Shown: piece after piece, positions 3,298 through 61,574 of the stretch
How positions within the stretch are numbered: the stretch's first letter is position 1
How the letters are laid out: every line of letters starts with the position of its first letter
Origin: Shigella phage SSG23
DNA: 64,000 nt
Strand: one strand, 5' to 3'
Sequence record: PQ351811
The notes under the pieces: generated by a model
The model's input: the letters and a program-made list of their open reading frames with translations, nothing else
What the model was told of the DNA's origin: nothing
Database searches by the model: none
Translations under genes and position numbers: made by a program

Positions 3298-3326
3298 TTG
3301 ACGCGGGGAGAAATCCCCGTTATACT
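3298..3326 (+). promoter_or_regulatory. sigma70-like early promoter with spacer hairpin (PeSL-like)
   Basis: TTGACG, 17-nt spacer containing CGGGGA-GAAA-TCCCCG hairpin, TATACT. Confidence 0.6.
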
Positions 3327-3350
3327 CTCTAAAAATTGATGGAGGTTATT

Positions 3351-3602
3351 ATGATTACTGATGCACTGAAAGAATTTAACGCAAGTTTAGAGAAGTTCAC
3401 TAAGATCCGAGTTTTTGAGGTTGTTCGGAATGGTCAACATATGCTATCCTTCCGTTCTAACTACGGGATGTGGACACATGACGAAATCCCGTTTGATCGT
3501 GATAATATCACTAGACTGGAACTAGCAACCATTGTATCCCGTAAGATTGCTGATATTACCCAGAATGTTATTGCGCGTGGGTCTATGGAGTCTGTACGAT
3601 GA
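3351..3602 (+). CDS. hypothetical protein
   Basis: ORF with GGAGG Shine-Dalgarno before ATG 3351; preceded by promoter-hairpin at 3298. Confidence 0.4.
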   Translation: MITDALKEFNASLEKFTKIRVFEVVRNGQHMLSFRSNYGMWTHDEIPFDRDNITRLELATIVSRKIADITQNVIARGSMESVR

Positions 3603-3916
3603 AAACACTTGCACAAAAAGTAATGGAATTTAATGCAGCGTTGCCTATGTTCGCTCGACGTAAGGGGATCTCCGTTGATGTATGGTATTCCAAAGAGCAT
3701 GAAGAAGTTCGGATGATGCTCGAAAAGCGACTCACTGACACTACCGTTAAGTGTAAGATTCGTTCTATTCCTCGCGAGGAAATAGAATTTGATGAAAGCT
3801 ATTACTTTACGCTGCGTCATGTGCTGAAACAAGCAATGGATGAACTTTTAGAAGACCTGAAACAATATGAGATTGAAGGGGGAACATATTATGAATATGA
3901 CTATGGTCGAGGCTGA
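3599..3916 (+). CDS. hypothetical protein
   Basis: ORF with ATGA overlap to the upstream gene. Confidence 0.4.
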   Translation: MKTLAQKVMEFNAALPMFARRKGISVDVWYSKEHEEVRMMLEKRLTDTTVKCKIRSIPREEIEFDESYYFTLRHVLKQAMDELLEDLKQYEIEGGTYYEYDYGRG

Positions 3917-4463
3917 TTCTGATTCGCTGGTAATGGAACATTTTATTGAATTGGTACACACATACACAATAAAACAATCATATCACAAGAATCCGATCTA
4001 TGGCTATCTGAAAGCGCGTATTGCTAAAATGTGGGGTCAGCCAGTGGTTAAGATGTGGTATGATGACGGTTATCGTCGTTACCTTAAAGTTATTCATCCA
4101 CAGGATTTGATGGTAACTATGGACATTGGCGACTTTGTAAAAGACAAAGTAGAATCCATTATTAAGAGTGTGGTTGGTGAATATAATCCGATTGTATATG
4201 GTGCTTTCGTCCAGTGGATACAATCCAGCAAGTATTATTTTCCGAATACTCCATTGACGCTAACAGGTTGGATCTCTGTCATGCATAGCGGTGTATTCCT
4301 GGAAGCGTCAGAGACAATGTACAAGGGATATATTCTCCCGCATCGACTGGTGAAATGTGATCACCGCTTGACTGTAGGTGAATTTCGCGATATTCTGGAA
4401 CAGCAAGCGGAAGACCTGCAAGGTGAAATTGAAGAATTTTTAGAGGAACATAAACTAAAATGA
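3891..4463 (+). CDS. hypothetical protein
   Basis: ORF; GAAGGGGG Shine-Dalgarno before ATG 3891. Confidence 0.4.
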   Translation: MNMTMVEADSDSLVMEHFIELVHTYTIKQSYHKNPIYGYLKARIAKMWGQPVVKMWYDDGYRRYLKVIHPQDLMVTMDIGDFVKDKVESIIKSVVGEYNPIVYGAFVQWIQSSKYYFPNTPLTLTGWISVMHSGVFLEASETMYKGYILPHRLVKCDHRLTVGEFRDILEQQAEDLQGEIEEFLEEHKLK

Positions 4464-4723
4464 TTCTATCGATGACCTACCTTAGACATAGGGTTATAGA
4501 AGGTCTTCGCGAATATCTGGCATTGAATAAAGGGATTTACATTGATCCCTTTATGACATATGATCCGGCGACACTGGATTATGTGGTCATGTTGCCAGAT
4601 CGCAGAGACACACTAGTTAAAGTGAAGGCGGCAAGTGTTTACAACATTGATGAAGATGTGTTAGCATTTAATATTATGGAATGTGTGATCGCGGAGTGGA
4701 TTAATGGCAAAGTTAAATTTTAA
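4460..4723 (+). CDS. hypothetical protein
   Basis: ORF with ATGA overlap to upstream gene; precedes gene 46. Confidence 0.4.
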   Translation: MILSMTYLRHRVIEGLREYLALNKGIYIDPFMTYDPATLDYVVMLPDRRDTLVKVKAASVYNIDEDVLAFNIMECVIAEWINGKVKF

Positions 4724-6386
4724 AACCTTGCGCTATCAGAATATAATGAGCGTAGGTGCTGAACCTGTAGAGATTCAGCTAGACGGATTCAAAAAGACAC
4801 TAATCACTGGTGTTAACGGTGCTGGTAAATCAACAATGATCGAGGCGCTTTGCTTTGTATTGTTTGGTAAACCGTTTCGTAGTATCAAGAAAGGCCAATT
4901 GATTAACAGCGTCAACAAAAAGAAACTGTTAGTCGAAGTCTGGTTTGAACTGGACGGGAAAGAATTTTATATTAAACGTGGTCAAAAGCCGGAAGTATTC
5001 GAAGTGCATCGCGACGGTCAAAAGATCGACGAGAGCGCGAGCACCAAAGACTTTCAGGAATATTTTGAAGGTATCATAGGCATGAACCTAGCCAGCTTTA
5101 AGCAGATTGTTGTTTTAGGCACTGCTGGTTATGTTCCGTTTATGAGTCTTCCGGCAGCGGGTCGCCGTAAGCTGGTCGAGGATTTGCTTGATATTGCCAC
5201 ATTAGGAGAAATGGACAAGCTGAATAAAGCGTATGTGCGCGAGATTACCCAGAATATCCAAATGCAGGAAATGAAAGCTAATCACGTTCAGCAACAAATC
5301 AACACTCATAAAAAGTACATAGAAGACGCTAGCAAGGCGAGTGCCGAGAATCTCCAGCGTTTACAGAATATGTATGATAAAGAGGTAGAATCGGCTAAAG
5401 CATTTAAAGCCGAAGAAACGCGCTTGACCGATGAGCTATTGGCTGTTGTTATGCCGGAAGATCCCAGCGCGGCATTGGCTAAAATTAATACGGCTATCGC
5501 ACAGATTGGTGCACAGATCCAGAACTTTGACCGTGTTATCCATATGCACGAGAAAGGCGGGGTTTGTCCTACGTGTACACAACCGATCATTCAGGGTAAT
5601 GATCATGCTGTACGCGAACAAAAAGCACAAGCAGAACATAAGCTGTCTCTGATTGACGAGAAACGCGTAGAATACGCAGAGAAAGCCAATTCTTTCCAGA
5701 CAGCACAAACTAAGGTCTTGGAAATTAAACGCGCTATAGAGTCACAGAGAGCGAATTTAACGGCATCTGTAGGTCGGGCTAAACAGATCCAGAAAGCAAT
5801 TCAGGAATTACAAAAAGAAAGGGTTGACAATTCCGAAGAACTTGCTAAACTGGAGCACGAACTGGTAGAGATTACCAATGAAAAATCAAAACTAGTTCTT
5901 GAAAAATATCATCGTGGATTTGTAACAGAAATGTTGAAGGATTCCGGTGTTAAGGCGTCTATCGTCAAGAAATATATTCCATATTTCAATGATCGAATTG
6001 CTTATTATCTGGAGATCATGGAAGCGGATTATATCTTTACGCTAGATGAAGAGTTTAACGAAACAATCAAATCACGGGGGCGTGAATCGTTTTCGTATAC
6101 ATCATTCAGTCAAGGCGAAAAAGCACGTATTGATCTTGCGATGCTCTTTACATGGCGTGATGTTGCTGGTAAAGTATCTGGTACTAATATCTCTTTGTTG
6201 GTACTCGATGAAATTTATGATGGGGCTACTGACGTTCAAGGCGTAAAAGCACTTGATTCCATCATTGACAAGTTAGATGATAACGTGTATATTATCAGCC
6301 ATCGTGACCATAACCCTGATGATTTTAGCCGTCATCTCAAGATGGTTAAACGTGGGCGATTCACTGAAATGAATGTTAACATTTGA
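4704..6386 (+). CDS. 46: recombination endonuclease subunit gp46 (Rad50/SbcC-like ATPase)
   Basis: Walker A GVNGAGKST at N-terminus, central coiled coil with CPTC zinc hook, C-terminal LVLDE Walker B; 560 aa as in T4. Confidence 0.9.
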   Translation: MAKLNFKTLRYQNIMSVGAEPVEIQLDGFKKTLITGVNGAGKSTMIEALCFVLFGKPFRSIKKGQLINSVNKKKLLVEVWFELDGKEFYIKRGQKPEVFEVHRDGQKIDESASTKDFQEYFEGIIGMNLASFKQIVVLGTAGYVPFMSLPAAGRRKLVEDLLDIATLGEMDKLNKAYVREITQNIQMQEMKANHVQQQINTHKKYIEDASKASAENLQRLQNMYDKEVESAKAFKAEETRLTDELLAVVMPEDPSAALAKINTAIAQIGAQIQNFDRVIHMHEKGGVCPTCTQPIIQGNDHAVREQKAQAEHKLSLIDEKRVEYAEKANSFQTAQTKVLEIKRAIESQRANLTASVGRAKQIQKAIQELQKERVDNSEELAKLEHELVEITNEKSKLVLEKYHRGFVTEMLKDSGVKASIVKKYIPYFNDRIAYYLEIMEADYIFTLDEEFNETIKSRGRESFSYTSFSQGEKARIDLAMLFTWRDVAGKVSGTNISLLVLDEIYDGATDVQGVKALDSIIDKLDDNVYIISHRDHNPDDFSRHLKMVKRGRFTEMNVNI

Positions 6387-10091: not shown

Positions 10092-10112
10092 GATACTGAT
10101 GGGATAGGGGTG

Positions 10113-10141
10113 TTGACAAACTAGTTCGACTCCCCTATAAT
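10113..10141 (+). promoter_or_regulatory. sigma70-like early promoter upstream of gene 43
   Basis: TTGACA, 17 nt, TATAAT; GGGG...CCCC arms flank the -35. Confidence 0.6.
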
Positions 10142-10173
10142 GAGTGTCTTTCGTAAGTGAAGGAGTTTATATT

Positions 10174-12852
10174 ATGTATTTTCTGTCATGTGAGCGAGTA
10201 GGTGATAAGATCTACGAGCGTTATATTGATGATGCTGGACAAGAACAAGAGCGTTACGTTGAATATACGCCAACATTATTTCATCATGCCGCGCCTGGTA
10301 TGGTTACTAATTATAAAGATATCTATGGCAAGCCTTGCATTGCTAAAAAATTCCCATCTATGAACGAGGCCAACAAATGGCGTAAAAAGATGGGGGAAAT
10401 GGGGCAAGAGGCACTAGGGATGGATGATTTTATCATCTCCTATCTGTCTGATACATATAAAGGTGAGATTCGATATGACCGAAATAAAATCCGTGTAGCA
10501 TGGGTTGATATTGAGGTCACTGCACCGGAATTTCCTAAACCAGAAGAGGCGAAATATCCTATCGATGCAATTACGCATTATGACTCCGTACATGATCGTT
10601 TCTTTGTATTTGATTTGAAAGGAAAAAACGGTGAAATCTGGGAAGCAAGAAAGTCTATTCTTCGACCTGATATTGTAGAGCGCGTTGTTTATAACGTCTA
10701 TGATACAGAAGATGAATTGCTATTAGAATACATCCGATTCTTTGAGGAAAATCGACCAGTTGGCTTCACTGGCTGGAACACAGAAACATTCGATATCCCG
10801 TATATCATTAAGCGTATCAGTAATAAGTTTGGAAGTCGAACGGCAAACCGTTTAAGCCCGTGCGGTAAGATTAAATCCCGAATCTCACAGGATGATTTTG
10901 GCAACGAGCGTGAAGCATTTACGATCATGGGGATCGAAAGCCTTGATTACATTGACCTGTACAAGAAATTTAGCTTTACGACTCAACCAACATATGCATT
11001 AGATTATGTTGCTGAATATGAGACAGGAATCGGTAAGGTTGATTATGATGGTCCGTTAAAGAAATTGCGTGATGACAACCATCAACTTTACATCGATTAT
11101 AACATCGGCGACGTTGACCGTGTGCTGGCGATTGATAAAAAACGTGGTTTTATTGATCTGGTGTATAGCCTATGTTTCTATGCAAAAATTAAATTTAACC
11201 ATGTTTATAATCCGATGAAAGTATGGGATGCTATTATCTTCGGATCTCTGAAAGCAGAGGGTAAAGTAGTACCGGAAAATAAGATACAGCCTAAGCAGAC
11301 TTATCCCGGCGCATTTGTAAAAGAACCTGTGCCGAATGCTTACCGTTGGATGATGAGCTTTGACTTAACAAGTCTTTATCCATCTATTATTCGACAGGTT
11401 AATATTTCGCCGGAAACTATCGCTGGGTCTTTTGATGCTGCACCGATGCACGAGTATATCAATAAAACTGCCCCGCGTCCGAGTGATGAGTATTCTTGCT
11501 CGCCTAACGGATGGATGTATCGAAAAGATATTCATGGTATCGTACCGATTGAGATTAAAAAGGTATTCGACCAGCGTAAGCAGTACAAAAACATGATGTT
11601 GGCATGTGATCGCAATGCTGAACTCTGTAAAGCGATTCTACACGATGAAAATCATGTTTATGGGGGAACCATTAGCTATAGCGTTGAAGTTCGTCATGAC
11701 TTCGATGAAGCGTTTAAATCTATGCTTTCGGAATTGAGCAAAGATACCCTAGAAAAATTGCTGGAAGAATGTAAAGACGAGTCGATCTTGTGCAACACAA
11801 ACCAGCTTTCTCGAAAAGTTTTGATCAACTCCCTTTATGGTGCGTTGGGGAATCCTAAATTCCGCTTTTATGATCTCCGTAACGCTAGTGCGATCACATT
11901 GTTTGGTCAGCTTGCAATTCAGTGGATTGAGCGTAAGATTAACGAATACTTAAACGAGCTTTGCGGAACAACTGATTTTGCATATGTTCGTTATTGTGAT
12001 ACTGACTCCGTTTATGTGCTGGTTAACAATGTTGTTGATAAGGTTGGCGGGGAAGACCGTTTCGACGATACCGAAAAACTTGTTGACTTCCTTGATAATT
12101 TCGGTAAGCATAGAATGGAACCGATTATCGACAAGGGATATCGCGAGTTATGCGAGTACATGAACAACTATGAGCACTTGATGTTTATGGACCGTGAGGC
12201 AATTGCCGGACCGCCTTTGAAGTCTGCGGGTATCGGTGGATTCTGGACTGGTAAAAAGCGTTATGCTCTTAATGTTTGGGATATGGAAGGAACGCGCTTT
12301 GCTGAACCTAAGCTAAAAATCATGGGCTTGGAAACACAACGTAGTTCTACTCCTAAAGCATGTCAGAAATCACTGAAAGAATGTATTCGTCGTATGTTGC
12401 AGGAAGGTGAAGAGTCATTGCAGGAATACTACGGTATTTTTGAGCAAGAATTTAGAAAACTTGACTATCTTGAGGTTGCTGCGGTATCATCTGCAAACAA
12501 CCTACAGAAATACAGCGATTCAAACGGGTATCCGATTAAGGGTTGTCCGTATGCGGTTAAGAGTGTATTGTGTTATAATCGTAATGCTCGAAAATTCGGA
12601 CTAGATCCGATTCGTGAGGGCGAGAAAGTTATGATCGTACCGCTCAAAGATCGAAATCCGTTTGGAGAAATCTGTTTTGGTTGGTTGTCTGGTACTCGTA
12701 TTCCGCCAGAAATTGAATCAGAAGTGTTAAAGTGGTTAGACTGGCCTTTGTTGTTTAATAAGACTTTCGTCAAACCACTGGAGAACATTACCACGGCTGC
12801 AAAGCTGCAATATGAAAAAGTTGCTTCTCTGACTGACCTGTTTGACATTTAA
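10174..12852 (+). CDS. 43: DNA polymerase gp43 (family B)
   Basis: Exo and pol motifs (DIEV, YNIGDVD, SLYPSII, NSLYGALG, YCDTDS) collinear with T4 gp43; start taken at ATG 10174 after AGGAG, not the upstream GTG. Confidence 0.95.
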   Translation: MYFLSCERVGDKIYERYIDDAGQEQERYVEYTPTLFHHAAPGMVTNYKDIYGKPCIAKKFPSMNEANKWRKKMGEMGQEALGMDDFIISYLSDTYKGEIRYDRNKIRVAWVDIEVTAPEFPKPEEAKYPIDAITHYDSVHDRFFVFDLKGKNGEIWEARKSILRPDIVERVVYNVYDTEDELLLEYIRFFEENRPVGFTGWNTETFDIPYIIKRISNKFGSRTANRLSPCGKIKSRISQDDFGNEREAFTIMGIESLDYIDLYKKFSFTTQPTYALDYVAEYETGIGKVDYDGPLKKLRDDNHQLYIDYNIGDVDRVLAIDKKRGFIDLVYSLCFYAKIKFNHVYNPMKVWDAIIFGSLKAEGKVVPENKIQPKQTYPGAFVKEPVPNAYRWMMSFDLTSLYPSIIRQVNISPETIAGSFDAAPMHEYINKTAPRPSDEYSCSPNGWMYRKDIHGIVPIEIKKVFDQRKQYKNMMLACDRNAELCKAILHDENHVYGGTISYSVEVRHDFDEAFKSMLSELSKDTLEKLLEECKDESILCNTNQLSRKVLINSLYGALGNPKFRFYDLRNASAITLFGQLAIQWIERKINEYLNELCGTTDFAYVRYCDTDSVYVLVNNVVDKVGGEDRFDDTEKLVDFLDNFGKHRMEPIIDKGYRELCEYMNNYEHLMFMDREAIAGPPLKSAGIGGFWTGKKRYALNVWDMEGTRFAEPKLKIMGLETQRSSTPKACQKSLKECIRRMLQEGEESLQEYYGIFEQEFRKLDYLEVAAVSSANNLQKYSDSNGYPIKGCPYAVKSVLCYNRNARKFGLDPIREGEKVMIVPLKDRNPFGEICFGWLSGTRIPPEIESEVLKWLDWPLLFNKTFVKPLENITTAAKLQYEKVASLTDLFDI

Positions 12853-12896
12853 GATAAAGTGTGTATAATGGCGGGTGTTGGGTGACGATACCCGCC
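12842..12896 (+). promoter_or_regulatory. sigma70-like early promoter plus downstream hairpin
   Basis: TTGACA overlapping gene 43 stop, 16 nt, TATAAT, then GGCGGGT...ACCCGCC hairpin. Confidence 0.55.
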
Positions 12897-12913
12897 AATG
12901 TGAGAAATATACT

Positions 12914-18627: not shown

Positions 18628-19152
18628 GTGAATATGTCAGAATTTAATTCTTGCGCTGGTCTGGTTAGCGACGAAACTATGTCTAAAGCTGGTATTGCGT
18701 ATTCCGAGGCAATCACTAGCGGCAAAGATCCGCTGCAAGTAATGTTAGATATGCAAAAAGGCTTACAGGTCGCACTAGCTGATAAATTTGAGTGGGTGCC
18801 GCATCCTGATAAGCTGGAAACTTGCGGGGAGATCCTTGATTGGATGAAGTTGTGGGATGACGCAATCGACGACGAGACACGAGAACTTTATGTTGCCCTG
18901 GGTGGCATGTCAAATGGCAAAGATGCAAGCGCAATTACTAAAGTGTGGAAGAAGAACCACGGCGAAGCACGAGCGCGTAAATTTGCTGATCTGTCAGATG
19001 ACGATAAAATCGAAATTGCGATGGAATTGATCGATATCTGGCATTTCGTGCTGATTAAAATGCTGGGCTTAGGTTTAACCGCTAAGGATATCTTCAAGCT
19101 GTACTACCTGAAAAATGCTGAAAATTTCGCCCGTCAAGAACGCGGCTACTAA
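18628..19152 (+). CDS. 56: dCTP pyrophosphatase gp56 (MazG-like)
   Basis: DPLQVMLDMQ, RELY, LGGMSNG and C-terminal FKLYYLKNAENFARQ match T4 gp56. Confidence 0.85.
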   Translation: MNMSEFNSCAGLVSDETMSKAGIAYSEAITSGKDPLQVMLDMQKGLQVALADKFEWVPHPDKLETCGEILDWMKLWDDAIDDETRELYVALGGMSNGKDASAITKVWKKNHGEARARKFADLSDDDKIEIAMELIDIWHFVLIKMLGLGLTAKDIFKLYYLKNAENFARQERGY

Positions 19153-19159
19153 AAATTAG

Positions 19160-19188
19160 TTGACACTACTCTATAATGGTTTTATTAT
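19160..19188 (+). promoter_or_regulatory. candidate early promoter
   Basis: TTGACA, 17 nt, TATTAT; a TATAAT also lies only 6 nt after the -35, so assignment is ambiguous. Confidence 0.35.
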
Positions 19189-19217
19189 GCCTCCCGTCGA
19201 AAGATTGGAGGCTTTTT
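19189..19217 (+). terminator. terminator-like hairpin that also contains the next gene's Shine-Dalgarno
   Basis: GCCTCC-cgtcgaaagatt-GGAGGC followed by TTTTTATT, then ATG 19221. Confidence 0.5.
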
Positions 19218-19220
19218 ATT

Positions 19221-19724
19221 ATGCAATTCACACCAGAAGAACTTAACATCATTGATGAAGTGATGAACTCTAAAGAAAATATCGATATGTCGATCCTTAA
19301 TGGATTGATTGAAAAGACTGAACGGTTAGTGCATCACGAAGCCTTGTATCGCGGTGTGAGCAAAAGAGAAGGCCGTAAGCTGGATACCTTAATTGTGGGT
19401 GATTCTTTCGTTGTAGAGCGTCCTATGAGCTTTACGCCACTACAATCAACAGCAGAGGACTTTGCAACCGATGTTTATGCAACAGGAAAGATTATTGCAG
19501 TAAAACCTACCAAGCCTTGCATGAATTATTACGAACATGCTATAGACCGAGTGGTGTCTAAAGAGTATGACAATCCGACTACTCGACTGTCTTTGTATGC
19601 TATGTTGGCTGATGAGCGCGAGTGCATATACAAGACAGGGACGACCATGATCCTTGATGAGATCGAGGAAGTTTACGCGTGCAATGGCGACCTGATAGAG
19701 ATTTACAAATTTTCTTTAATTTAA
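19221..19724 (+). CDS. putative ADP-ribosyltransferase (ModA/ModB-like)
   Basis: R-S-E-type triad candidates: LYRGVS, SFTPLQST, ADEREC; size and position near dda/56 fit T4 modA/modB. Start at ATG 19221 after a hairpin-embedded GGAGG. Confidence 0.45.
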   Translation: MQFTPEELNIIDEVMNSKENIDMSILNGLIEKTERLVHHEALYRGVSKREGRKLDTLIVGDSFVVERPMSFTPLQSTAEDFATDVYATGKIIAVKPTKPCMNYYEHAIDRVVSKEYDNPTTRLSLYAMLADERECIYKTGTTMILDEIEEVYACNGDLIEIYKFSLI

Positions 19725-19727
19725 GTG

Positions 19728-19757
19728 TTGACAGCACAAACCAGATAGACAATAATA
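19728..19757 (+). promoter_or_regulatory. candidate early promoter
   Basis: TTGACA, about 17 nt, AATAAT; conserved leader ...ACCAACTAAGGAGAATCA before ATG. Confidence 0.4.
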
Positions 19758-19785
19758 CACACATACCAACTAAGGAGAATCAATT

Positions 19786-25436: not shown

Positions 25437-25441
25437 AACAC

Positions 25442-25480
25442 TTGACATACAAGGGAGATTCTCTATAATGGGAGTCTCCC
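25442..25480 (+). promoter_or_regulatory. early promoter with enclosing hairpin (PeSL-like)
   Basis: TTGACA, 16 nt, TATAAT; GGGAGA...TCTCCC arms enclose the -10; T-run follows. Confidence 0.55.
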
Positions 25481-25503
25481 TTTTCTTTTATGAGGATTTA
25501 ATA

Positions 25504-25803
25504 ATGAGCAAAAAGAATAACATGATGATGAGCATGGCAAAGTTCATGGAAGCAGACCTGATCAAAAATACAGTACAGCATGAACGTCAGCGAGAAGCCG
25601 CAGTGATTGCAGAACAAGGTTTTCAGGTTATCCGCAATCCACCTAAAGACACGGTTAAATCGAAATACAGAGACGATTTGAAAGACCATGAAGTACGGGA
25701 ACTGGTTAATGATCTGCGTGACATTGCTATCAAATATCATGGTTATCAGTGCTTAAGAGAACTGATTGCAGAGCGAGTAATGGATGCACTGAAAAAAGAT
25801 TAA
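25504..25803 (+). CDS. hypothetical protein
   Basis: ORF downstream of promoter-hairpin at 25442. Confidence 0.4.
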   Translation: MSKKNNMMMSMAKFMEADLIKNTVQHERQREAAVIAEQGFQVIRNPPKDTVKSKYRDDLKDHEVRELVNDLRDIAIKYHGYQCLRELIAERVMDALKKD

Positions 25804-25810
25804 AAAGTTG

Positions 25811-25845
25811 TTGACGCTGGATCGGGGATATAGCATAATATCCCC
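25811..25845 (+). promoter_or_regulatory. early promoter with hairpin (PeSL-like)
   Basis: TTGACG, 17 nt, CATAAT; GGGGATAT...ATATCCCC arms. Confidence 0.55.
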
Positions 25846-25869
25846 ATCGAAAACAAAAGGTTGACTTAT

Positions 25870-33200: not shown

Positions 33201-33225
33201 ATACCAAACAAAAGGAGAATCAAAG

Positions 33226-33907: not shown

Positions 33908-33934
33908 TACCGAAACGAACTGGAGGAAATAAAA

Positions 33935-34177: not shown

Positions 34178-34183
34178 AATTAG

Positions 34184-34218: not shown

Positions 34219-34241
34219 ATACCAAACGAAAGGAGAATCAC

Positions 34242-34454
34242 ATGAAATCTATCGAGCAAGTAGTAACCGAGTTTATGAGCTACGAAGGAAACCGCATCTT
34301 TGGACGTTCTCAAGTTCGCGAGATCGTAGAAGAAGTTGCGAGAGAGTTTGCGGAATCTGGTCACATTATCACGAAAGACCGTAAAGAAGAAGCAGTAAAC
34401 CAGATCATGGCTATACAGAAAATGCGTATTAATTTACGCGTGGGTAAACATTAA
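34242..34454 (+). CDS. hypothetical protein
   Basis: ORF with conserved AAAGGAGAATCA leader. Confidence 0.45.
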   Translation: MKSIEQVVTEFMSYEGNRIFGRSQVREIVEEVAREFAESGHIITKDRKEEAVNQIMAIQKMRINLRVGKH

Positions 34455-34464
34455 AAATAGTTGT

Positions 34465-34493
34465 TGACAGGGGATCGGTGATCCCCTATAATG
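34465..34493 (+). promoter_or_regulatory. PeSL-like promoter-hairpin cassette
   Basis: TTGACA, 17-nt spacer made of GGGGATC-GGT-GATCCCC hairpin, TATAAT. Confidence 0.65.
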
Positions 34494-34523
34494 AACTCAT
34501 CAAGACAACGAAGGAGAATCAAA

Positions 34524-34679
34524 ATGAAACATACTCACAAATTAATGGTTAAATTTGAAGGTGCTAAGGGATATGAACGTTACGGTGTATTCTTCTCTGA
34601 GGATGATGCATGGGATGCTGGTTTGGCAACGTTCGCCGAACACAACAACATTGAAGACTTTACTGTAGAAGAAATTTAA
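34524..34679 (+). CDS. hypothetical small protein
   Basis: ORF with conserved GAAGGAGAATCA leader. Confidence 0.4.
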   Translation: MKHTHKLMVKFEGAKGYERYGVFFSEDDAWDAGLATFAEHNNIEDFTVEEI

Positions 34680-34687
34680 AAAAGTAG

Positions 34688-34722
34688 TTGACACCGGATT
34701 ATGGGAGTAGTAAGATACTCCC
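34688..34722 (+). promoter_or_regulatory. PeSL-like promoter-hairpin cassette
   Basis: TTGACA, 17 nt, TAAGAT; GGGAGTAGTAAGATACTCCC hairpin identical to the copy at 34199. Confidence 0.6.
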
Positions 34723-34749
34723 ATCAAGAAAAACATTGAGGAATATATT

Positions 34750-50733: not shown

Positions 50734-51414
50734 ATGATCAGAAACCGTCTTCCTCCAGATCCAGATATGCGAATTAATGCTAAATCTGTGTATATGTTAT
50801 ATTGCATGATGAAAGCTCATATGAACGGGCGTTATGATTGTGTAAAATATAATTGGAGGATGCGGTTATCTGATGCCGCATTCAATAAACGCAGAGATAA
50901 GTATTATTTCGCGAAATTAGCGGAAAAGTACAATCTAAGAGAATTATACTTCCTATTCCTAAGCAATCTGGTAGCTAATACCGATGCATGGGTAGGTGAA
51001 ATCACTGATGTTGACGCATACGGATTTTACATGGAGTATATCGGTAAGATCACTGATGCGGCAACACGATTTGACGATGACATTAAAAGTCTTGTATACT
51101 TCTCCGAGAAACGCGGGGTTACTCTTAAAGAGCTAATTACATACAATCCCGCAACCGAAACTAGCGGTATCTTTAAGCTACTGCAAAATCGGATTATATC
51201 GTTTGAGTCGTTTATGTTGTTAGATAGCTTTCTAAATATAATCGACGAACACGACAAGGTAGCCAAAGACTTGATTTGGCAAACTTATAGTGTTAAAATG
51301 AAGGCGTACAAGAAACTACTTGTTATTGACGCCACAAAAGCAAGAGCATTATTTGTTAAAGTAGTTAAAGAGTGTAAAGAAATATCTCAATTAAAAGCCG
51401 AAACAAATAGTTGA
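50734..51414 (+). CDS. 59: helicase loader gp59
   Basis: KSVYMLYCMMKAHMNGRYDCVKYNWRMRLSDAAFNKRRDKYYF and LSNLVANTDAW match T4 gp59. Confidence 0.9.
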   Translation: MIRNRLPPDPDMRINAKSVYMLYCMMKAHMNGRYDCVKYNWRMRLSDAAFNKRRDKYYFAKLAEKYNLRELYFLFLSNLVANTDAWVGEITDVDAYGFYMEYIGKITDAATRFDDDIKSLVYFSEKRGVTLKELITYNPATETSGIFKLLQNRIISFESFMLLDSFLNIIDEHDKVAKDLIWQTYSVKMKAYKKLLVIDATKARALFVKVVKECKEISQLKAETNS

Positions 51415-51438
51415 CAAGTAAATCTAAATCTGTATAAT
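51411..51438 (+). promoter_or_regulatory. strong sigma70 promoter upstream of gene 32
   Basis: TTGACA (overlaps gene 59 stop), 16 nt, TATAAT. Confidence 0.6.
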
Positions 51439-51468
51439 AGTCTAGTAAATTAATCAAAAGAAGGAATA

Positions 51469-52416
51469 GTGAATATGTTTAAACGCCAAGATTCTTCCAA
51501 ACTGCAAGCTCAACTGGCCGCACTGAAAGGTGGCAACGGTTTCTCTAAAGAAGATCCGAAAGAGTGGAAGATTAAGACTGATGCAGCAGGTAACGGTGAA
51601 GCCCTGATTCGCTTCCTGCCGTCTAAGACAGAAGACGGTCTGCCGATTGTGAAACTGGTAAACCATTCCTTCAAAGTTAATGGAAAATGGTATTGGGAAA
51701 ACTGCTCCAGCACCCACGGTGATTTTGATTCTTGCCCTGTGTGCAAATATATTAACGAAAAAGATTTGTACAATACCGATAAAACCGAATGGCAACTGAT
51801 CAAGCGTAAAGCGTCTTACTACGCAAATATTCTGGTACTGAAAGATCCTCAAGCACCGGAAAACGAAGGCAAGGTATTTAAATTCCGCTTCGGTCAGAAA
51901 ATTTATGATAAGATCGTTGCAATGGTGAACGTGAATACCGATATGGGCGAAGTTCCGGTCGATGTAACTTGTGTGTTCTCCGGTGCTAACTTCCTCCTGA
52001 AAGCTAAGAAGGTTGATAAACACCAGAACTATGATGATTCTCGTTTCATGCAGCAATCACAGCTTCCGAAAATTGAAGACGAAGCATACCAGAAATATCT
52101 GATGGAAAACATGGTTGATCTGGGTGAGATTGTAGCACCTAGCCAGTTTAAACCGTTTGACGAACTGGAAACCAAATTTAAGAAAACTATGGGTGTGTCT
52201 ATGGTAGCGGGTGCTGCGGCTTCCAGTGCTGCGGCGGCGATTAACAGCCAGCTTGATGATTTTGATGCTCAGATGAATGCATTCGATTCTGGTATTACCG
52301 CAGCTAGCACGGCGTCAGATTCTTCCGCTGATGACCTGATGGCATCTCTGGACCTGGGTGGCGGTACTTCCTCCGCTTCTGATCTGGATGACCTGGATTC
52401 TCTGTTAGCGATGTAA
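51469..52416 (+). CDS. 32: single-stranded DNA-binding protein gp32
   Basis: [52 protein letters not shown] match T4 gp32; acidic C-terminal tail. Confidence 0.95.
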
Positions 52417-52427: not shown

Positions 52428-52453
52428 AGCCTCCCTTCGGGGAGGCTTTTTTA
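52428..52453 (+). terminator. rho-independent terminator after gene 32
   Basis: AGCCTCCC-ttcg-GGGAGGCT followed by TTTTTTATT. Confidence 0.75.
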
Positions 52454-52478
52454 TTACCTAAAAATTTATGAAAAGGTG

Positions 52479-52506
52479 TTGACATGTTGGTGAGGTAATG
52501 TATAAT
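52479..52506 (+). promoter_or_regulatory. sigma70-like early promoter
   Basis: TTGACA, 16 nt, TATAAT; directly after the gene 32 terminator. Confidence 0.55.
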
Positions 52507-52535
52507 GAACTCATCGAAACAATGGAGGATTAACA

Positions 52536-52865
52536 ATGTTTTTGAATGCTACCCTTTCCCAGAAAAGTGATAAAATCGAACTTCTGTATGTCATTGCTGA
52601 TGTGGACGTACAACGAAGAAATATAGATTTAAAAATTCACAAATATTATACTATGAGTGAATATCATGAAATCGAGATCCCACATAGTGTGTATCCTGCA
52701 TTATTGTTAGGAAAAGGAAATCTAAGTGAATATTCTTTGAAAGTCATCAAAGATTCTAAATCAATGCTTGCTCATATGGAAAAAGATTTTCTTGATGAAA
52801 TTTCCGCGCTAGTTATTAAACTGAAAGAAGAAACAGCACCGCTTTTCATGGAACAAAAAGGTTGA
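52536..52865 (+). CDS. hypothetical protein
   Basis: 109-aa ORF downstream of terminator and promoter at 52428-52506. Confidence 0.45.
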   Translation: MFLNATLSQKSDKIELLYVIADVDVQRRNIDLKIHKYYTMSEYHEIEIPHSVYPALLLGKGNLSEYSLKVIKDSKSMLAHMEKDFLDEISALVIKLKEETAPLFMEQKG

Positions 52866-52889
52866 CTCCGAACACAGATGATGTATAAT
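52862..52889 (+). promoter_or_regulatory. sigma70-like early promoter
   Basis: TTGACT (overlaps upstream stop), 16 nt, TATAAT. Confidence 0.55.
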
Positions 52890-52920
52890 ACAAACATCAA
52901 AACAAAGAGAGGATTATATT

Positions 52921-55407: not shown

Positions 55408-55425
55408 GCGGGGAGAAATCCCCGC
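55408..55425 (+). other. GAAA-tetraloop stem-loop after td
   Basis: GCGGGGA-GAAA-TCCCCGC; same hairpin as in the promoter spacers at 3304 and 58010, here without a -35 element. Confidence 0.5.
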
Positions 55426-55437
55426 AAGGAGTATCAA

Positions 55438-55751: not shown

Positions 55752-57995
55752 ATGATTAAAAATGTTGTTAAGTCTTCCGGTCTGACTGTTCCGTTTGAAA
55801 AAGAAAAAGTAATGAAAATTCTGGAAGCGGCAGCCGAAGGTCATAACGTTGATCCATATGAATTGTTTGATATGGTTGAACCGCTTCTGACAGAAGGTAT
55901 GTCTACCAACGATATCCAGAAAGTATTGATTAAGGTCGCCGCAGATAACATTACTGTAGAAACACCTGATTATCAATATGTAGCAAGTAACCTTGCAATG
56001 TTCGCGCTTCGTAAATCAGTATATGGTCAATTCCAACCGATTGATTTTTACAGCCATATTGAGCGTAATATTGCAACCGGAAAATATGATCGCGAAATTC
56101 TGCAAAAGTATTCCCGTGAAGAAGTGGAATATCTGGAGAAATTCATCGATCATAAACTTGATTTTAAAATGACCTATGCTGGTGCGATGCAGTTAAAAGA
56201 GAAATATCTTGTTCAGGATCGCAGCACTAAGAAAATCATTGAAACACCGCAATTTGCGTATATGCTGATCGGTATGTGCTTACATCAAGAAGAGACAGAA
56301 AATCGACTTGAACATGTGATTGATTTTTATAATGCTGTTGCGAATAAGCAAATTTCTCTGCCTACTCCGATTATGGCGGGTGTGCGTACCCCGACACGAC
56401 AATTTAGTTCGTGTGTGGTGATTGAAAGTGATGACTCATTGCAGGGCATCAATGAAACAGCAAATGCAATCATCAAGTATATTAGTAAGCGTGCTGGTAT
56501 CGGCATCAATGCTGGTATGATTCGCGCGGAAGGATCTAAGATCGGGCATGGTGAAGTTCGTCATACTGGCGTTATCCCGTTCTGGAAACATTTTCAGACT
56601 GCCGTTAAGTCATGTTCACAAGGCGGTATTCGTGGCGGGGCAGCGACTCTCTATTACCCAATGTGGCATTTAGAGTTTGAAAGTCTTATTGTGTTGAAGA
56701 ACAACAAAGGGGTAGAAGATAACCGCATCCGTCATCTTGATTACGGCGTACAGATTAATAACCTGATGGTAGAGCGATTCCTTAAACGCGATTACATTAC
56801 TCTGTTTAGTCCAGATGTTGCGGGTGGCTTGTTGTGGGATCTGTACTTCCGAGATGAGGAAGGATTCCGCCAGCTTTACGAAAAACTGGAAAAAGATCCG
56901 AGTGTGCGTAAAACTCGTGTTAAAGCCGAAGACCTGTTTTTAGCGGTGGCAATTGAACGTTTTAACACTGGTCGAATCTATCCAGCGTTCACAGACAACA
57001 TGAACAATCACGGGGCGTTTATTCGTAATGTAGCACCGATTAAACAATCTAACCTGTGTTGTGAAATTGCTCTGCCGACAAAACCGATGGGTCGTGATGA
57101 TTCAGAGATCAGCCTATGCACTTTGGCAGCATATGTTTTAGGTAATTTCGATATCGAAAACATGGAAGAAGTAGAACGCATTGCTATGGTTATGGTGCGT
57201 GCGCTTGACAACTTGTTAGATTATCAGGATTATCCTGTAAAACAAGCACTGACAGCCAAAAAACGTCGCTCTCTGGGTGTTGGCGTGACTAACTTTGCAT
57301 CATATCTGGCGGATAATTTCTTCACATATGAAGACGCTAACGAGTTTACGCATAAAACGTTTGAACGCTTGCAATATGCTCTGATTAAGGCTAGTGTGCA
57401 ACTGGCTAAAGAGAAGGGTGCTTGCGAACTGATGCACGAAACACGTTATGGTCGCGGTGAACTTCCTATTGACTGGTACAAAAAGACAGTAGATGAACTG
57501 GTTGATCCGGTGTATGAGATGGATTGGGAAGAACTGCGCGAAGACCTGAAAAAATATGGCATTCGTAACAGTACGCTTTCGGCGCTGATGCCTTGTGAGT
57601 CGTCTTCTCAGGTGTCTAACAGCACAAACGGTATTGAACCGCCTCGCGGGATTGTATCGGTTAAAGGATCAAAGGAAGGACAATTTAATCAGGTTATTCC
57701 GAACGTAGAGAATAATGCTGATGTTATTGACCTGCTTTGGACACTGATCAAGAAAGGTAACAAGCCTTATCTGACACTGGCAGCGATCATGCAGAAGTTT
57801 GTAGATCAGGCGATTAGTTCCAATACATCCTACGATCCAAGCACTTATAAGACTGGTAAAGTCGATATTGCTGATGTATTAGATGATATGTTGTTTGCTC
57901 AATATTACGGCCTCAAGACACTGTATTACGCTAACGTGCGTGATGGTGCTGATGGTACGGAAGACGCTAGCGAATGTTCATCTTGCAAACTGTAA
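55752..57995 (+). CDS. nrdA: ribonucleotide reductase large subunit NrdA (class Ia)
   Basis: N-terminal ATP-cone, catalytic NLCCEI and C-terminal CSSCKL tail; 747 aa. Confidence 0.95.
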   Translation: MIKNVVKSSGLTVPFEKEKVMKILEAAAEGHNVDPYELFDMVEPLLTEGMSTNDIQKVLIKVAADNITVETPDYQYVASNLAMFALRKSVYGQFQPIDFYSHIERNIATGKYDREILQKYSREEVEYLEKFIDHKLDFKMTYAGAMQLKEKYLVQDRSTKKIIETPQFAYMLIGMCLHQEETENRLEHVIDFYNAVANKQISLPTPIMAGVRTPTRQFSSCVVIESDDSLQGINETANAIIKYISKRAGIGINAGMIRAEGSKIGHGEVRHTGVIPFWKHFQTAVKSCSQGGIRGGAATLYYPMWHLEFESLIVLKNNKGVEDNRIRHLDYGVQINNLMVERFLKRDYITLFSPDVAGGLLWDLYFRDEEGFRQLYEKLEKDPSVRKTRVKAEDLFLAVAIERFNTGRIYPAFTDNMNNHGAFIRNVAPIKQSNLCCEIALPTKPMGRDDSEISLCTLAAYVLGNFDIENMEEVERIAMVMVRALDNLLDYQDYPVKQALTAKKRRSLGVGVTNFASYLADNFFTYEDANEFTHKTFERLQYALIKASVQLAKEKGACELMHETRYGRGELPIDWYKKTVDELVDPVYEMDWEELREDLKKYGIRNSTLSALMPCESSSQVSNSTNGIEPPRGIVSVKGSKEGQFNQVIPNVENNADVIDLLWTLIKKGNKPYLTLAAIMQKFVDQAISSNTSYDPSTYKTGKVDIADVLDDMLFAQYYGLKTLYYANVRDGADGTEDASECSSCKL

Positions 57996-58003
57996 AATAA
58001 GTG

Positions 58004-58032
58004 TTGACGCGGGGAGAAATCCCCGCTATAAT
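58004..58032 (+). promoter_or_regulatory. PeSL-like promoter-hairpin cassette
   Basis: TTGACG, 17-nt spacer with CGGGGA-GAAA-TCCCCG hairpin, TATAAT; near-identical to the 3298 copy. Confidence 0.65.
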
Positions 58033-58063
58033 ACAACCATCAAAAACAAATGAGGATTTTATT

Positions 58064-60928: not shown

Positions 60929-60940
60929 TGTTTGTTCAAA

Positions 60941-60964
60941 GTCGCCCATAGTGGCGACTTTTTT
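60941..60964 (+). terminator. rho-independent terminator
   Basis: GTCGCC-catagt-GGCGAC followed by TTTTTTGTT. Confidence 0.65.
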
Positions 60965-60975
60965 GTTATTGGGTG

Positions 60976-61004
60976 TTGACAATCGGATCTTGCCATAGCA
61001 TAAT
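60976..61004 (+). promoter_or_regulatory. sigma70-like early promoter
   Basis: TTGACA, 17 nt, CATAAT; follows terminator at 60941. Confidence 0.5.
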
Positions 61005-61028
61005 ACGCACATCGAAACGGAGGAACAT

Positions 61029-61247
61029 ATGGAAACAGAAGAACAAGTCATTGCATATTTTCATCGTAAAAAGATGAAACTTAGAATCGAAAAACAGTAC
61101 ATCAATCACTATATTGACCGAGTCCACTTAACAAGTACACCTTACCTATTCCGGTTGATAAACCCTCGAAAACGGTGGGATAAGTTGGATAGAAACACAA
61201 AAATAATTGATAAACTCACCCAATGGTGGAATGAATACAACAAGTAA
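61029..61247 (+). CDS. hypothetical protein
   Basis: 72-aa ORF downstream of promoter at 60976. Confidence 0.4.
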   Translation: METEEQVIAYFHRKKMKLRIEKQYINHYIDRVHLTSTPYLFRLINPRKRWDKLDRNTKIIDKLTQWWNEYNK

Positions 61248-61297
61248 AAAAGTAGTTGACACTGAATAACGGGGGTAGTAATATACCCCCATCGAAA
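61246..61297 (+). repeat. 52-bp direct repeat, copy 1
   Basis: aaaaagtagttgacactgaataacgggggtagtaatatacccccatcgaaac, identical to 61523..61574. Confidence 0.85.
61255..61289 (+). promoter_or_regulatory. PeSL-like promoter-hairpin cassette (duplicate copy 1)
   Basis: TTGACA, 17 nt, TAATAT; GGGGGTAGTAATATACCCCC hairpin. Confidence 0.6.
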
Positions 61298-61312
61298 CAA
61301 AGGAGAATCAAA

Positions 61313-61531
61313 ATGAAATTTATCTGCACCGACTCTATCAGCAAACACTTTGTAGTAGGCGAAGTATACGAATCTACTACCATTCGTCAGCGTGACCTGA
61401 TGGGTCGCCTTTACAATCAGCCAGTATTCATTATTGGTGAAGAATTGTTCTACATTGAAAACCGTCCGTGGGTTGCTTTCAATAAACGAGGACGCAAGGT
61501 AGCAAAATTCGAACTTGTCATTAAAAAGTAG
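61313..61531 (+). CDS. hypothetical small protein (paralog of 32953..33159)
   Basis: 72 aa ending KVAKFELVIKK; flanked by an exact 52-bp promoter-hairpin duplicate. Confidence 0.45.
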   Translation: MKFICTDSISKHFVVGEVYESTTIRQRDLMGRLYNQPVFIIGEELFYIENRPWVAFNKRGRKVAKFELVIKK

Positions 61532-61574
61532 TTGACACTGAATAACGGGGGTAGTAATATACCCCCATCGAAAC
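61523..61574 (+). repeat. 52-bp direct repeat, copy 2
   Basis: Exact copy of 61246..61297; the two copies bracket ORF 61313..61531. Confidence 0.85.
61532..61566 (+). promoter_or_regulatory. PeSL-like promoter-hairpin cassette (duplicate copy 2)
   Basis: Same sequence as copy 1. Confidence 0.6.

Follow-up and report, generated by a model that had tools for sequence, protein, structure and literature searches.

Early promoters of the window

The DNA analysed here (the window) comprises 64,000 nucleotides of Shigella phage SSG23 (PQ351811) and is 100% identical to Shigella phage SFHK24, a T4-type phage of the genus Krischvirus (RB49/phi1 group). It contains 20 sigma70-type cassette promoters, each with TTGACN, a 16-17 nt spacer and a -10 hexamer, preceded by an A/T-rich stretch. 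All 20 lie on the early-gene (+) strand, 24-44 nt 5' of a start codon. The promoters and hairpins are listed below, PeSL being promoter-early stem-loop, the type of module to which we assign them.

3278..3350, +: PeSL, spacer class; -35 TTGACG 3298-3303, -10 TATACT 3321-3326, ATG 3351; spacer hairpin CGGGGA-GAAA-TCCCCG at 3304-3319 (-13.2 kcal/mol, z -3.5)
10093..10173, +: PeSL 5' of DNA polymerase gene 43; -35 10113-10118, -10 TATAAT 10136-10141; imperfect hairpin overlapping the -35 at 10104-10138
12822..12913, +: PeSL 3' of gene 43; -35 12842-12847 within the gene end, -10 TATAAT 12864-12869; hairpin beginning at the last -10 base, 12869-12897 (-21.4 kcal/mol)
19140..19220, +: promoter; -35 19160-19165, -10 TATTAT 19183-19188, ATG 19221; hairpin between -10 and ATG at 19189-19212, with the Shine-Dalgarno (SD) GGAGG in its 3' arm, then a T-rich tail (7 T in 8 nt)
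19708..19785, +: cassette promoter without hairpin (0 kcal/mol); -35 19728-19733, -10 AATAAT 19751-19756, ATG 19786
25422..25503, +: PeSL; -35 25442-25447, -10 TATAAT 25464-25469; hairpin enclosing the -10 at 25451-25482 (-21.3 kcal/mol, z -5.4), then TTCTTTT, a canonical terminator shape
25791..25869, +: PeSL, -10-overlap class; -35 25811-25816, -10 CATAAT 25834-25839, hairpin 25824-25845, predicted start A 25846
32851..32952, +: PeSL, upstream-hairpin class; terminator hairpin plus T8 at 32851-32873, -35 32893-32898, -10 CATAAT 32916-32921, leader CCATACCAAACAAAAGGAGATTCA, ATG 32953; left partner of cassette indel 32956/33193
33146..33225, +: PeSL, -10-overlap class; -35 33166-33171, -10 TAACAT 33189-33194, hairpin 33181-33200, leader as quoted in the preliminary description of this DNA, ATG 33226; right partner of indel 32956/33193
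33852..33934, +: PeSL (35.3 bits) with decayed hairpin GGTAGTA..TACTCCC (one U.C mismatch); -35 33872-33877, -10 TATTAT 33895-33900, likely ATG 33935
34164..34241, +: PeSL, -10-overlap class; -35 34184-34189, -10 TAAGAT 34207-34212, hairpin 34199-34218, ATG 34242; right edge of 505-bp indel 33660/34166
34444..34523, +: PeSL, spacer class, near-identical to phi1 PeSL211/210; -35 34464-34469, -10 TATAAT 34487-34492, ATG 34524; spacer hairpin GGGGATC-GGT-GATCCCC at 34470-34486
34668..34749, +: PeSL, -10-overlap class; -35 34688-34693, -10 TAAGAT 34711-34716, hairpin 34701-34724, ATG 34750
51391..51474, +: hairpin-less early promoter of gene 32; -35 51411-51416, -10 TATAAT 51433-51438; the AY343333 record labels the orthologous site 'early RB49 promoter', that of GEC-3S 'promoter'
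52428..52535, +: PeSL, upstream-hairpin class; terminator (UUCG loop) plus T-rich tail (7 T in 8 nt) at 52428-52447, -35 52479-52484, -10 TATAAT 52501-52506, ATG 52536; left edge of cassette replacement 52533/52855
52842..52920, +: hairpin-less cassette promoter; -35 52862-52867, -10 TATAAT 52884-52889, ATG 52921; right edge of replacement 52533/52855
55409..55426, +: hairpin GCGGGGAGAAATCCCCGC, a copy of the PeSL stem-loop lacking a promoter, immediately 5' of an SD; left edge of a 311-bp ORF indel
57984..58063, +: PeSL, spacer class, 3' of nrdA; -35 58004-58009, -10 TATAAT 58027-58032, ATG 58064; spacer hairpin GCGGGGA-GAAA-TCCCCGC at 58009-58026 (-15.3 kcal/mol, z -4.1); promoter annotation in GEC-3S
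60938..61028, +: PeSL, upstream-hairpin class; hairpin plus T-rich tail 60938-60961, -35 60976-60981, -10 CATAAT 60999-61004, ATG 61029
61236..61312, +: PeSL (39.4 bits), -10-overlap class; -35 61256-61261, -10 TAATAT 61279-61284, hairpin 61271-61290, ATG 61313; shares a 55-nt repeat, 98% identical, with the next copy
61512..61601, +: PeSL, -10-overlap class; -35 61532-61537, -10 TAATAT 61555-61560, hairpin 61547-61566, ATG 61602; aligns to two PeSLs bordering an extra ORF in phi1, GEC-3S and KFS-EC

The preliminary description had reported a recurring module in about 20 copies, and the sequences it quoted were all found in place; its figure holds for the promoters, but not for hairpins in or at the spacer (three in the spacer, seven overlapping the -10, one degenerate, three promoters with none). 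The -35 form it gave, TAGTTGAC, occurs eight times, always on the + strand, against 1.7 expected, while the remaining copies carry GTTGTTGAC, GTGTTGAC or similar. Its 24-nt leader, CCATACCAAACAAAAGGAGAATCA, is specific to three copies (at most one mismatch; 0 occurrences expected), most other leaders starting with CATCGAAAC or CATCAAAAC. It had also suggested a genome scan with a motif model and a comparison with chance. The pattern TTGAC-N16-18 followed by at least 4/6 matches to TATAAT, with A2 and T6 required, has 57 matches on the + strand against 7.2 +/- 2.6 expected from dinucleotide shuffles, and 6 on the - strand against 6.4. Model R1, built from the 20 window copies and scanned genome-wide, gave 52 sites, 51 of them on the + strand and 28 outside the training window; the single - strand match falls within a - strand gene block.

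Hairpins within and beside the promoters

A strong GC hairpin lies between the -35 and +1 of 10 of the 20 promoters, within the spacer in three and enclosing or overlapping the -10 in seven. One further promoter has a decayed copy of the -10-overlap hairpin, six others carry one over the -35 or else immediately downstream or upstream, and three (19728, 51411, 52862) have none. A hairpin strictly between -35 and -10 is found in 3/20 copies and is a minority arrangement. The quoted hairpins are CGGGGAGAAATCCCCG (3304-3319 and 58010-58025), GGGAGTAGTAAGATACTCCC (34199-34218 and 34703-34722), GGGGATCGGTGATCCCC (34470-34486) and GGGGGTAGTAATATACCCCC (61271-61290 and 61547-61566). Counting folds of at most -11.5 kcal/mol across the -35..+12 core, a hairpin is present in 10/20 cassette promoters, compared with 2/37 of the remaining + strand sites (Fisher p = 2e-4) and 4% of randomly drawn 43-nt windows (binomial p = 2e-9). 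A folding tool returned -11.9 to -21.3 kcal/mol (z -1.7 to -5.4) for nine of the ten core hairpins, and 0 to -5.5 kcal/mol for the three hairpin-less promoters.

It is possible, but in our view unlikely, that the promoter (an early promoter) and the hairpin (an RNA terminator or 3' stabiliser) are unrelated signals of the ordinary kind, brought side by side by the tiny intergenic space without forming a functional cassette, and that the copies recombine simply because promoters are repeated. The three promoters lacking a hairpin fit this account, as do identical or similar hairpins without a promoter at 55409-55426 and 62009-62026 and many stand-alone terminator hairpins in other intergenic gaps; the hairpin-less promoters and the promoter-less copy at 55409 indeed mean that the two parts are separable. 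However, hairpins are enriched 12-fold in the promoter core and are phased to the promoter, the 3' arm stopping at the predicted -1 in 7/7 -10-overlap copies and the stem filling the 17-nt spacer exactly in three, and crossovers occur within the composite unit.

Between orthologues, stems diverge by 1.0%, flanks by 5.1% (p = 3e-5) and the rest of the spacer by 5.0%, a roughly 5-fold greater conservation of stems, in which independent events are overcounted since the relatives are closely related. Paralogues carry compensatory variants at one stem position (GGGAGTA/TACTCCC, GGGGGTA/TACCCCC, GGGTGTA/TACACCC), and interior non-Watson-Crick pairs are G.U in six independent cases and A.C in none (a small count; p about 0.02-0.03). 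Among the loops are the stable RNA tetraloops GAAA and UUCG. That stems vary only through G.U pairs or compensatory changes suggests, at the level of sequence, that they act in sense-strand RNA. An inverted repeat acting in DNA, as a cruciform or protein-binding site within the promoter that tunes initiation or nucleates recombination, for instance through cleavage by endonuclease VII or the gp46/47 nuclease, appears improbable. The stems include perfect palindromes, GGGG..CCCC is recurrent, the GGGGATC-NNN-GATCCCC loop occurs in both orientations (GGT/ACC, GGC/GCC), and Arbiol et al. 2010 speculated on a specific DNA-binding protein (PMC2839356); yet the absence of A.C changes and the RNA-type tetraloops point elsewhere, at least five unrelated stem sequences argue against one sequence-specific protein, and both resolved crossovers lie outside the hairpin.

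The hairpins share a GC-rich stem and short loop in RNA with intrinsic (Rho-independent) terminators, and the full shape with a T tract is present at 25451-25482, 32851-32873, 52428-52447, 60938-60961 and 19189-19212. In contrast, a U-tract is missing from nine of the ten core hairpins, which are followed by TATAAT or AUACCAAAC / AUCGAAAC (0-4 T within 8 nt) and are therefore not canonical intrinsic terminators. Termination of antisense (- strand) transcription entering the early region is very improbable: two copies are terminator-like on the - strand, followed by T-rich runs (34220-34197, 33200-33181), but the other -10-overlap copies have no - strand T run and sense-strand G.U pairs would be C.A mismatches in antisense RNA. 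Chance occurrence of TTGAC-N17-TATAAT in an AT-rich genome is refuted, for although a loose 9-of-12 scan is barely above shuffles (64 against 52.6), the excess is 8-fold and confined to one strand, the model R1 matches lie almost entirely on the early-gene strand, and the sites have a fixed placement 5' of start codons and are conserved in relatives.

Correspondence with published PeSL cassettes

The modules are best explained as a whole, with a probability of roughly 0.88, as the PeSLs of a Krischvirus. They are thus already known, as cassettes described in 2010 for RB49-like phages, and the identification is correct but ordinary. PeSLs were originally defined in the RB49/phi1 group (Arbiol et al. 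2010, Genome Biol Evol 2:140, PMC2839356) as a near-consensus sigma70 promoter with an AT-rich stretch upstream and a G..C stem-loop that takes one of five positions with respect to the -35/-10, after which come the SD and the beginning of the following gene. The window elements fit all of these traits, including the five positional subclasses; genus, promoter consensus and upstream stretch are identical, and the modules occupy the same sites, 5' of small ORFs with no known function and around gene 43, which has PeSLs on either side (PMC2839356). Copy number is similar, about 50 per genome, with 52 published for phi1 and 51 for RB49 (PMC2839356) alongside the 52 sites of model R1. Individual copies are orthologous or near-identical: apart from an additional T 5' of the -10 and changes in the leader, element 34464 matches phi1 PeSL211/210, an experimentally tested copy whose stem-loop terminates transcription (Arbiol et al. 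2010), and phi1 PeSL206/205 has the same stem with the loop inverted. Orthologous sites carry promoter annotation in the RB49 and GEC-3S records, and 5'-end mapping is reported to bear out the early-promoter consensus of RB49. The earlier proposal that the modules match the PeSL cassettes of RB49/RB43-type phages is therefore borne out for RB49, whereas RB43 is merely mentioned in the published work for PeSL-like sequences near gene 43 (PMC2839356). SFHK24 shows no difference of kind from RB49 and phi1; it is a separate isolate with its own cassette set, including ORFs 32953-33159, 34524-34679 and 55438-55740, which are absent from both.

The PeSLs of T4/PST and KVP40/nt-1 (Comeau et al. 2014, PMC4122927) are likewise composites of early promoter and stem-loop bordering variable ORFs, but have promoters TTTACW..TAYWAT or TTGYVH..TAWWAT and stems AGNA..TCNT or A3-4G3..C3T3-4, compared with near-perfect TTGACA..TATAAT and Gn..Cn in the window. 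Early promoters of T4 resemble those of the window in being read by unmodified host sigma70 RNA polymerase and in their extended conservation, A-rich upstream tracts and conserved start region; their -35 is GTTTAC, whereas that of the window is GTTGAC, with G at -33, and they generally lack GC hairpins.

Cassette exchange and a proposed mode of action

Comparison with eight relatives revealed gains and losses of ORF cassettes whose junctions fall within the modules, the same link to ORF indels as in RB49/phi1. Seven of the 14 ORF-level indels in the early region have an edge inside a PeSL, against 19% expected for indels placed randomly among gene junctions (p = 0.009); the other half are not PeSL-bounded, three being homing-endonuclease insertions. 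Relatives have one chimeric module in place of the window's two modules around a small ORF, and two events resolve to chimeric single PeSLs, one with its crossover in the shared leader and the other with it in the A-rich stretch. Tandem copies have as much as 55 nt in common, at 98% identity. The suggestion that the module is a recombination substrate is supported by these junctions and chimeras. As in integron gene cassettes and lambdoid 'morons', single ORFs travel with their own expression signals; unlike these, PeSL cassettes have no integrase or attC-type site, and exchange apparently proceeds via homology between regulatory modules, as argued by Arbiol et al. 2010 (PMC2839356).

Each cassette is compact and intergenic and runs from the upstream gene's stop codon, within the A/T-rich stretch, through a near-consensus host sigma70 promoter and a short, A-rich, unstructured leader, whose first base is probably the A of a conserved CAT, to a strong Shine-Dalgarno and the start codon of the gene that follows, which is usually small and has no known function. 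Early transcription by host RNA polymerase is predicted from the sequence to begin at each cassette; such starts are experimental for phi1 PeSLs, and 5' ends have been mapped in RB49. The hairpin appears placed so as to be missing from the cassette's own transcript, its 3' arm ending at -1 in the -10-overlap class, and would be present in read-through RNA from upstream, where it may serve as a terminator, attenuator or 3'-end protector insulating neighbouring cassettes. Such a role has been demonstrated for a single spacer-class stem-loop of phi1; the others may act likewise. Because copies share 30-70 nt of near-identical sequence, phage homologous recombination would cross over between them, and such crossovers would delete, insert or swap the ORFs that they flank.

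Early promoters and their cassettes

The window corresponds to positions 67342-131341 of the genome of Shigella phage SFHK24, a member of the family Straboviridae, genus Krischvirus; its bases 30000-40000 match SFHK24 (PQ351812.1) at 100% and more than 60 RB49-like phages at 85-96%. The early and replication genes are encoded on the + strand, and the late tail-fibre and holin genes form a - strand block at 37.8-48.4 kb. Where the early (+) and late (-) blocks converge, a GC hairpin between A and T runs (37754-37788; GGGGAGGCCGAAAGGCTTCCCC) looks like a bidirectional terminator.

A strict scan for TTGAC, a spacer of 16-18 nt and a -10 hexamer with at least 4/6 matches, A2 and T6 included, identified 57 sites on the + strand of the window, compared with 7.2 +/- 2.6 in dinucleotide shuffles, and 6 on the - strand, where 6.4 were expected. 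A generic 9-of-12 promoter scan of the window was barely above the shuffles (64 vs 52.6); only the TTGAC-anchored pattern and R1, a sequence-only model built on 20 window copies, part signal from noise. Twenty of the + strand sites have an A/T-rich stretch 5' of the -35 and, past the -10, a Shine-Dalgarno (SD) sequence and a start codon 24-44 nt downstream. All 20 carry TTGAC, a spacer of 16-17 nt and a -10 matching TATAAT at 4/6 positions or more with A2 and T6 invariant, and are thus near-consensus sigma70 promoters. The A+T fraction over the 20 upstream nt is 0.6-0.9 in 18 of them (consensus AAAAAAGTnGTTGAC), and alignment of all copies gives the consensus AAAAAAGTnGTTGACAC-N-GTATAATACnCCCATCnAAAA. 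Stem-loops, usually of the form Gn..Cn, occupy five positions relative to these promoters.

Cassette promoters of the window by position of the hairpin (first base of each -35)
3298, 34464, 58004; + strand; hairpin within the spacer (3)
25442, 25811, 33166, 34184, 34688, 61256, 61532; + strand; hairpin enclosing or overlapping the -10 (7)
33872; + strand; decayed copy of the -10-overlap type (1)
10113; + strand; hairpin over the -35 (1)
12842, 19160; + strand; hairpin just downstream (2)
32893, 52479, 60976; + strand; upstream terminator hairpin with T tract (3)
19728, 51411, 52862; + strand; promoter without hairpin (3)

The preliminary description had counted about 20 early promoters with a GC-rich hairpin in or next to the spacer; this number is correct for the promoters, but a hairpin so placed is present in only about half of them. 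All sequences that it quoted are present in the window, and the limits that it gave are 3298, the first -35, and 61574, where the last copy ends. The 24-nt leader that it described as conserved occurs in three copies, but most others begin CATCGAAAC or CATCAAAAC.

The hairpin classes stand in different registers relative to the -10. Applied to the complete SFHK24 genome with a cut-off of E <= 1, R1 returned 52 matches, 28 of them outside the window; 51 lie on the + strand, which carries the early genes, and the single - strand match lies within a block of - strand genes. These totals stand alongside the published 52 PeSLs (promoter-early stem-loops) of phi1 and 51 of RB49 (PMC2839356). The motif cannot be said to be no more frequent than chance, and chance occurrence is excluded by this strand bias together with the excess of + strand sites over shuffles. 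A regex scan of the same genome gave 118 + strand and 19 - strand sites. An SD and ATG follow 51 of them at 18-48 nt, and a strong core hairpin is present in 28 of these 51. In IMG/VR, a pattern scan with the outer stem unspecified returned 43 stretches, only three of them Krischvirus contigs; the others were unrelated promoters lacking complementary N4/N4, useful as a negative control but adding no further data. Between orthologues, the -10 diverges by 1.0% and the -35 by 2.7%, compared with 5.1% for the flanks. From the near-consensus hexamers, their conservation, and the strict strand and position of the copies, we infer that they function as promoters.

Sigma70-like promoters are also in strong excess in sense orientation inside + strand coding sequences (31 vs 4.2 +/- 2.1 after codon shuffling; 23 vs 0.9 for those with at least 5/6 -10 matches), about 14 sites being 54-98 nt upstream of the next gene and about 20 deeper. 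These sites may serve as early promoters internal to genes, in a group of phages that reportedly lacks MotA-type middle promoters.

Examples of sigma70-like sites inside coding sequences
26425-26453; + strand; sigma70-like site
28383-28411; + strand; sigma70-like site in rIIA
49052-49079; + strand; sigma70-like site in rnh
16389-16417; + strand; sigma70-like site

The site at 16389 is the only intragenic site scoring well with R1 (23.4 bits). Its position coincides with an internal repeat of the next gene's start (16381-16413, 16687-16719), which suggests that a former cassette was absorbed into CDS 16017-16652.

Relationship to the PeSLs of RB49 and phi1

Arbiol and colleagues (2010; PMC2839356) described about 50 PeSLs per genome in RB49 and phi1, each composed of a sigma70-consensus promoter, an AT-rich upstream stretch, a polyG..polyC stem-loop in one of five positions, and the SD and start of the next gene. 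PeSLs cluster in front of ORFans in the hyperplastic regions, and gene 43 has them on either side (Arbiol 2010, PMC2839356). In core regions PeSLs of the RB49/phi1 type are few, bordering gene 43 and genes like it; mini-circle formation is also listed among the traits of this type. The window cassettes are of the same kind, and SFHK24 belongs to the genus in which PeSLs were first defined. Two clusters, of six copies within 32.9-34.7 kb and of three within 61.0-61.5 kb, stand entirely before hypothetical ORFs, gene 43 is flanked by copies 10113 and 12842, and tandem copies are 273-280 bp apart (32893/33166, 34184/34464, 61256/61532). At the sequence level, copy 34464 shares stem and loop with phi1 PeSL211/210 (EF437941; GTTGACAGGGGATCGGTGATCCCCTTATAAT), and the stem also with phi1 PeSL206/205 (EF437941; GTTGACAGGGGATCACCGATCCCCTATACT). 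The orthologue of 51411 is annotated as "early RB49 promoter" in the RB49 GenBank record, and in the RefSeq record of GEC-3S many window copies have orthologues annotated as promoters. The window modules are therefore PeSLs, exactly the modules described in RB49 and phi1; the match proposed in the preliminary description was a correct rediscovery of something already known.

Experimental evidence of promoter function belongs to the phi1 and RB49 copies, and the window copies are assigned by sequence. PeSL206/205 of phi1 showed strong promoter activity in vivo (about 13,000 Miller units), and the stem-loop of PeSL211/210 acted as a terminator in vivo (Arbiol 2010, PMC2839356). According to Nolan and colleagues (2006), the early consensus predicted for RB49 (G at -33, C at -3 to -1) agrees with the 5'-end mapping of Desplats 2002. 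A literature search on Krischvirus transcriptomes found nothing relevant.

Position and pairing of the hairpins

Ten of the 20 cassette promoters fold to -11.5 kcal/mol or lower within the core (-35 to +12), as do 2/37 other + strand sites and 4% of random 43-nt windows. With a folding tool, nine core hairpins gave -11.9 to -21.3 kcal/mol (z -1.7 to -5.4) and three promoters without hairpins 0 to -5.5 kcal/mol. That promoter and hairpin are independent signals has some support from the three bare promoters and from the occurrence of the same hairpin in promoter-less copies at 55409-55426 (GCGGGGAGAAATCCCCGC) and 62009-62026 (GGCGGGAGAAATCCCGCC), but would leave the enrichment and phasing of the hairpins unexplained.

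The stems diverge by 1.0% between orthologues (4/392), compared with 5.0% for the remaining spacer and 5.1% for the flanks, and paralogues keep the pairing with other sequences (GGGAGTA/TACTCCC, GGGGGTA/TACCCCC, GGGTGTA/TACACCC, GGGGATC/GATCCCC, CGGGGA/TCCCCG). Under a strict stem rule, the six independent cases of interior non-Watson-Crick pairs are all G.U, and no A.C pair occurs. A relaxed mismatch rule yielded 13 'C.A' pairs, which were artefacts of stems extended through the fixed TTGACA/TATAAT flanks, and the strict rule was therefore retained. The occurrence of G.U but never A.C, together with GAAA and UUCG loops, points to pairing in the sense-strand RNA and hints that the PeSL hairpins are constrained at the RNA level. 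Loops that "flip" between GGT and ACC and between GGC and GCC suggest instead that the inverted repeat works in DNA, as a cruciform or protein site; however, the restriction of stem variation to G.U, the variety of stem sequences and the location of crossovers outside the hairpin all argue against such a site. GGGGATC-NNN-GATCCCC loops occur in reverse-complement pairs among copies (window 34470-34486; L003 2032-2101 and 3578-3664; SFHK24 genome copies), and it looks as if a palindromic module was inverted or inserted in either orientation. An antisense-terminator reading was rejected, as it fits two copies only.

The published role, in which the hairpin is a terminator or attenuator insulating the cassette, fits these features. 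However, the one stem-loop tested is of the spacer class, and 9/10 promoter-core hairpins (0-4 T) lack the U tract (5 or more U in 8 nt) that starts no more than 2 nt after the GC-rich stem-loop of an intrinsic terminator. Such a tract is present at 25451-25482 and at the upstream or downstream hairpins of 32893, 52479, 60976 and 19160. No Rfam family matched the window at the gathering threshold. The hairpin at 19189-19212 is followed by a T-rich tail (T at 7 of 8 nt) and lies between the -10 and the start of a ModA-like ADP-ribosylase gene (19183-19221), whose SD is part of the hairpin's 3' arm; transcription is predicted to start at about 19195, inside the 5' arm, so that only read-through RNA would be terminated or masked.

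The seven -10-overlap hairpins of the window have no U tract, hold the -10 hexamer in the loop, and in 7/7 the 3' arm ends exactly at -1, one base before the predicted start. The cassette's own transcript would thus be without the hairpin and read-through RNA from upstream would contain it. These hairpins might form a distinct functional class, selected in the sense RNA and acting only on upstream-derived transcripts, unlike ordinary intrinsic terminators; we put this forward tentatively, as the less probable side of an uneven bet. Their strict phasing, stems conserved like the -10, and variation confined to G.U and compensatory changes are compatible with such a class but are no proof of it. 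The hairpin might release polymerase colliding with an occupied promoter or, alternatively, might cap the 3' end of the upstream message following cleavage in the GGAG leader. GGAG, the target motif of RegB in T4, is found in the SD of most PeSL leaders, and an endoribonuclease annotated at SFHK24 42792-43214, outside the window, is probably a RegB homologue.

Recombination and ORF turnover at the cassettes

Comparison of the early regions with eight relatives (phi1, RB49, Ec_Makalu_001, PTE-Eco09, PHB13, GEC-3S, Skers and KFS-EC) revealed 14 ORF-level indels, 7 of which have an edge inside a PeSL (p = 0.009 relative to gene junctions taken at random, of which 19% carry a PeSL). The other indels are homing-endonuclease insertions or lack a PeSL.

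ORF-level differences with edges at PeSLs
32953-33159; ORF between PeSLs 32893 and 33166; missing in four relatives
34524-34679; ORF between 34464 and 34688; missing in two relatives
52479-52862; slot with different ORFs, both ORFs or none, varying by phage
61532; extra ORF between duplicate copies in three relatives
34444-34451; extra ORF inserted in phi1
33660/34166 and 33662/33832; indels with right edges at PeSLs

Stretches of up to 55 nt are 98% identical between tandem copies, and nucleotide alignments show that relatives hold single chimeric modules. The two chimeric junctions resolved place one crossover in the shared leader CATACCAAACAAAAGGAGA and the other in the A-rich stretch 5' of the -35; with the indel edges, they support the earlier suggestion that the module may be a recombination substrate.

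The promoter-less hairpin copy at 55409-55426 marks the left edge of an ORF indel of 311 bp that SFHK24 and Makalu_001 carry and seven relatives lack. A homing endonuclease gene (58589-59300) between the ORFs after nrdA and nrdB is missing in five relatives; other such insertions are present in relatives upstream of ORF 48455 (48415-48437) and between genes 59 and 32 (51403-51470). The real start of annotated CDS 33761-34177 is probably ATG 33935, behind PeSL 33872 and its SD; an unannotated ORF of 74 aa at 33670-33894 has a signal-peptide-like start (MKKMIAIALLASAC...).

A published regulatory and recombination module can thus be recognised from raw sequence alone. The gain for biology is small, namely one more Krischvirus genome with roughly 50 such cassettes, together with fresh comparative evidence of ORF gain and loss via crossovers within cassettes, one located in the A-rich stretch and the other in the leader.
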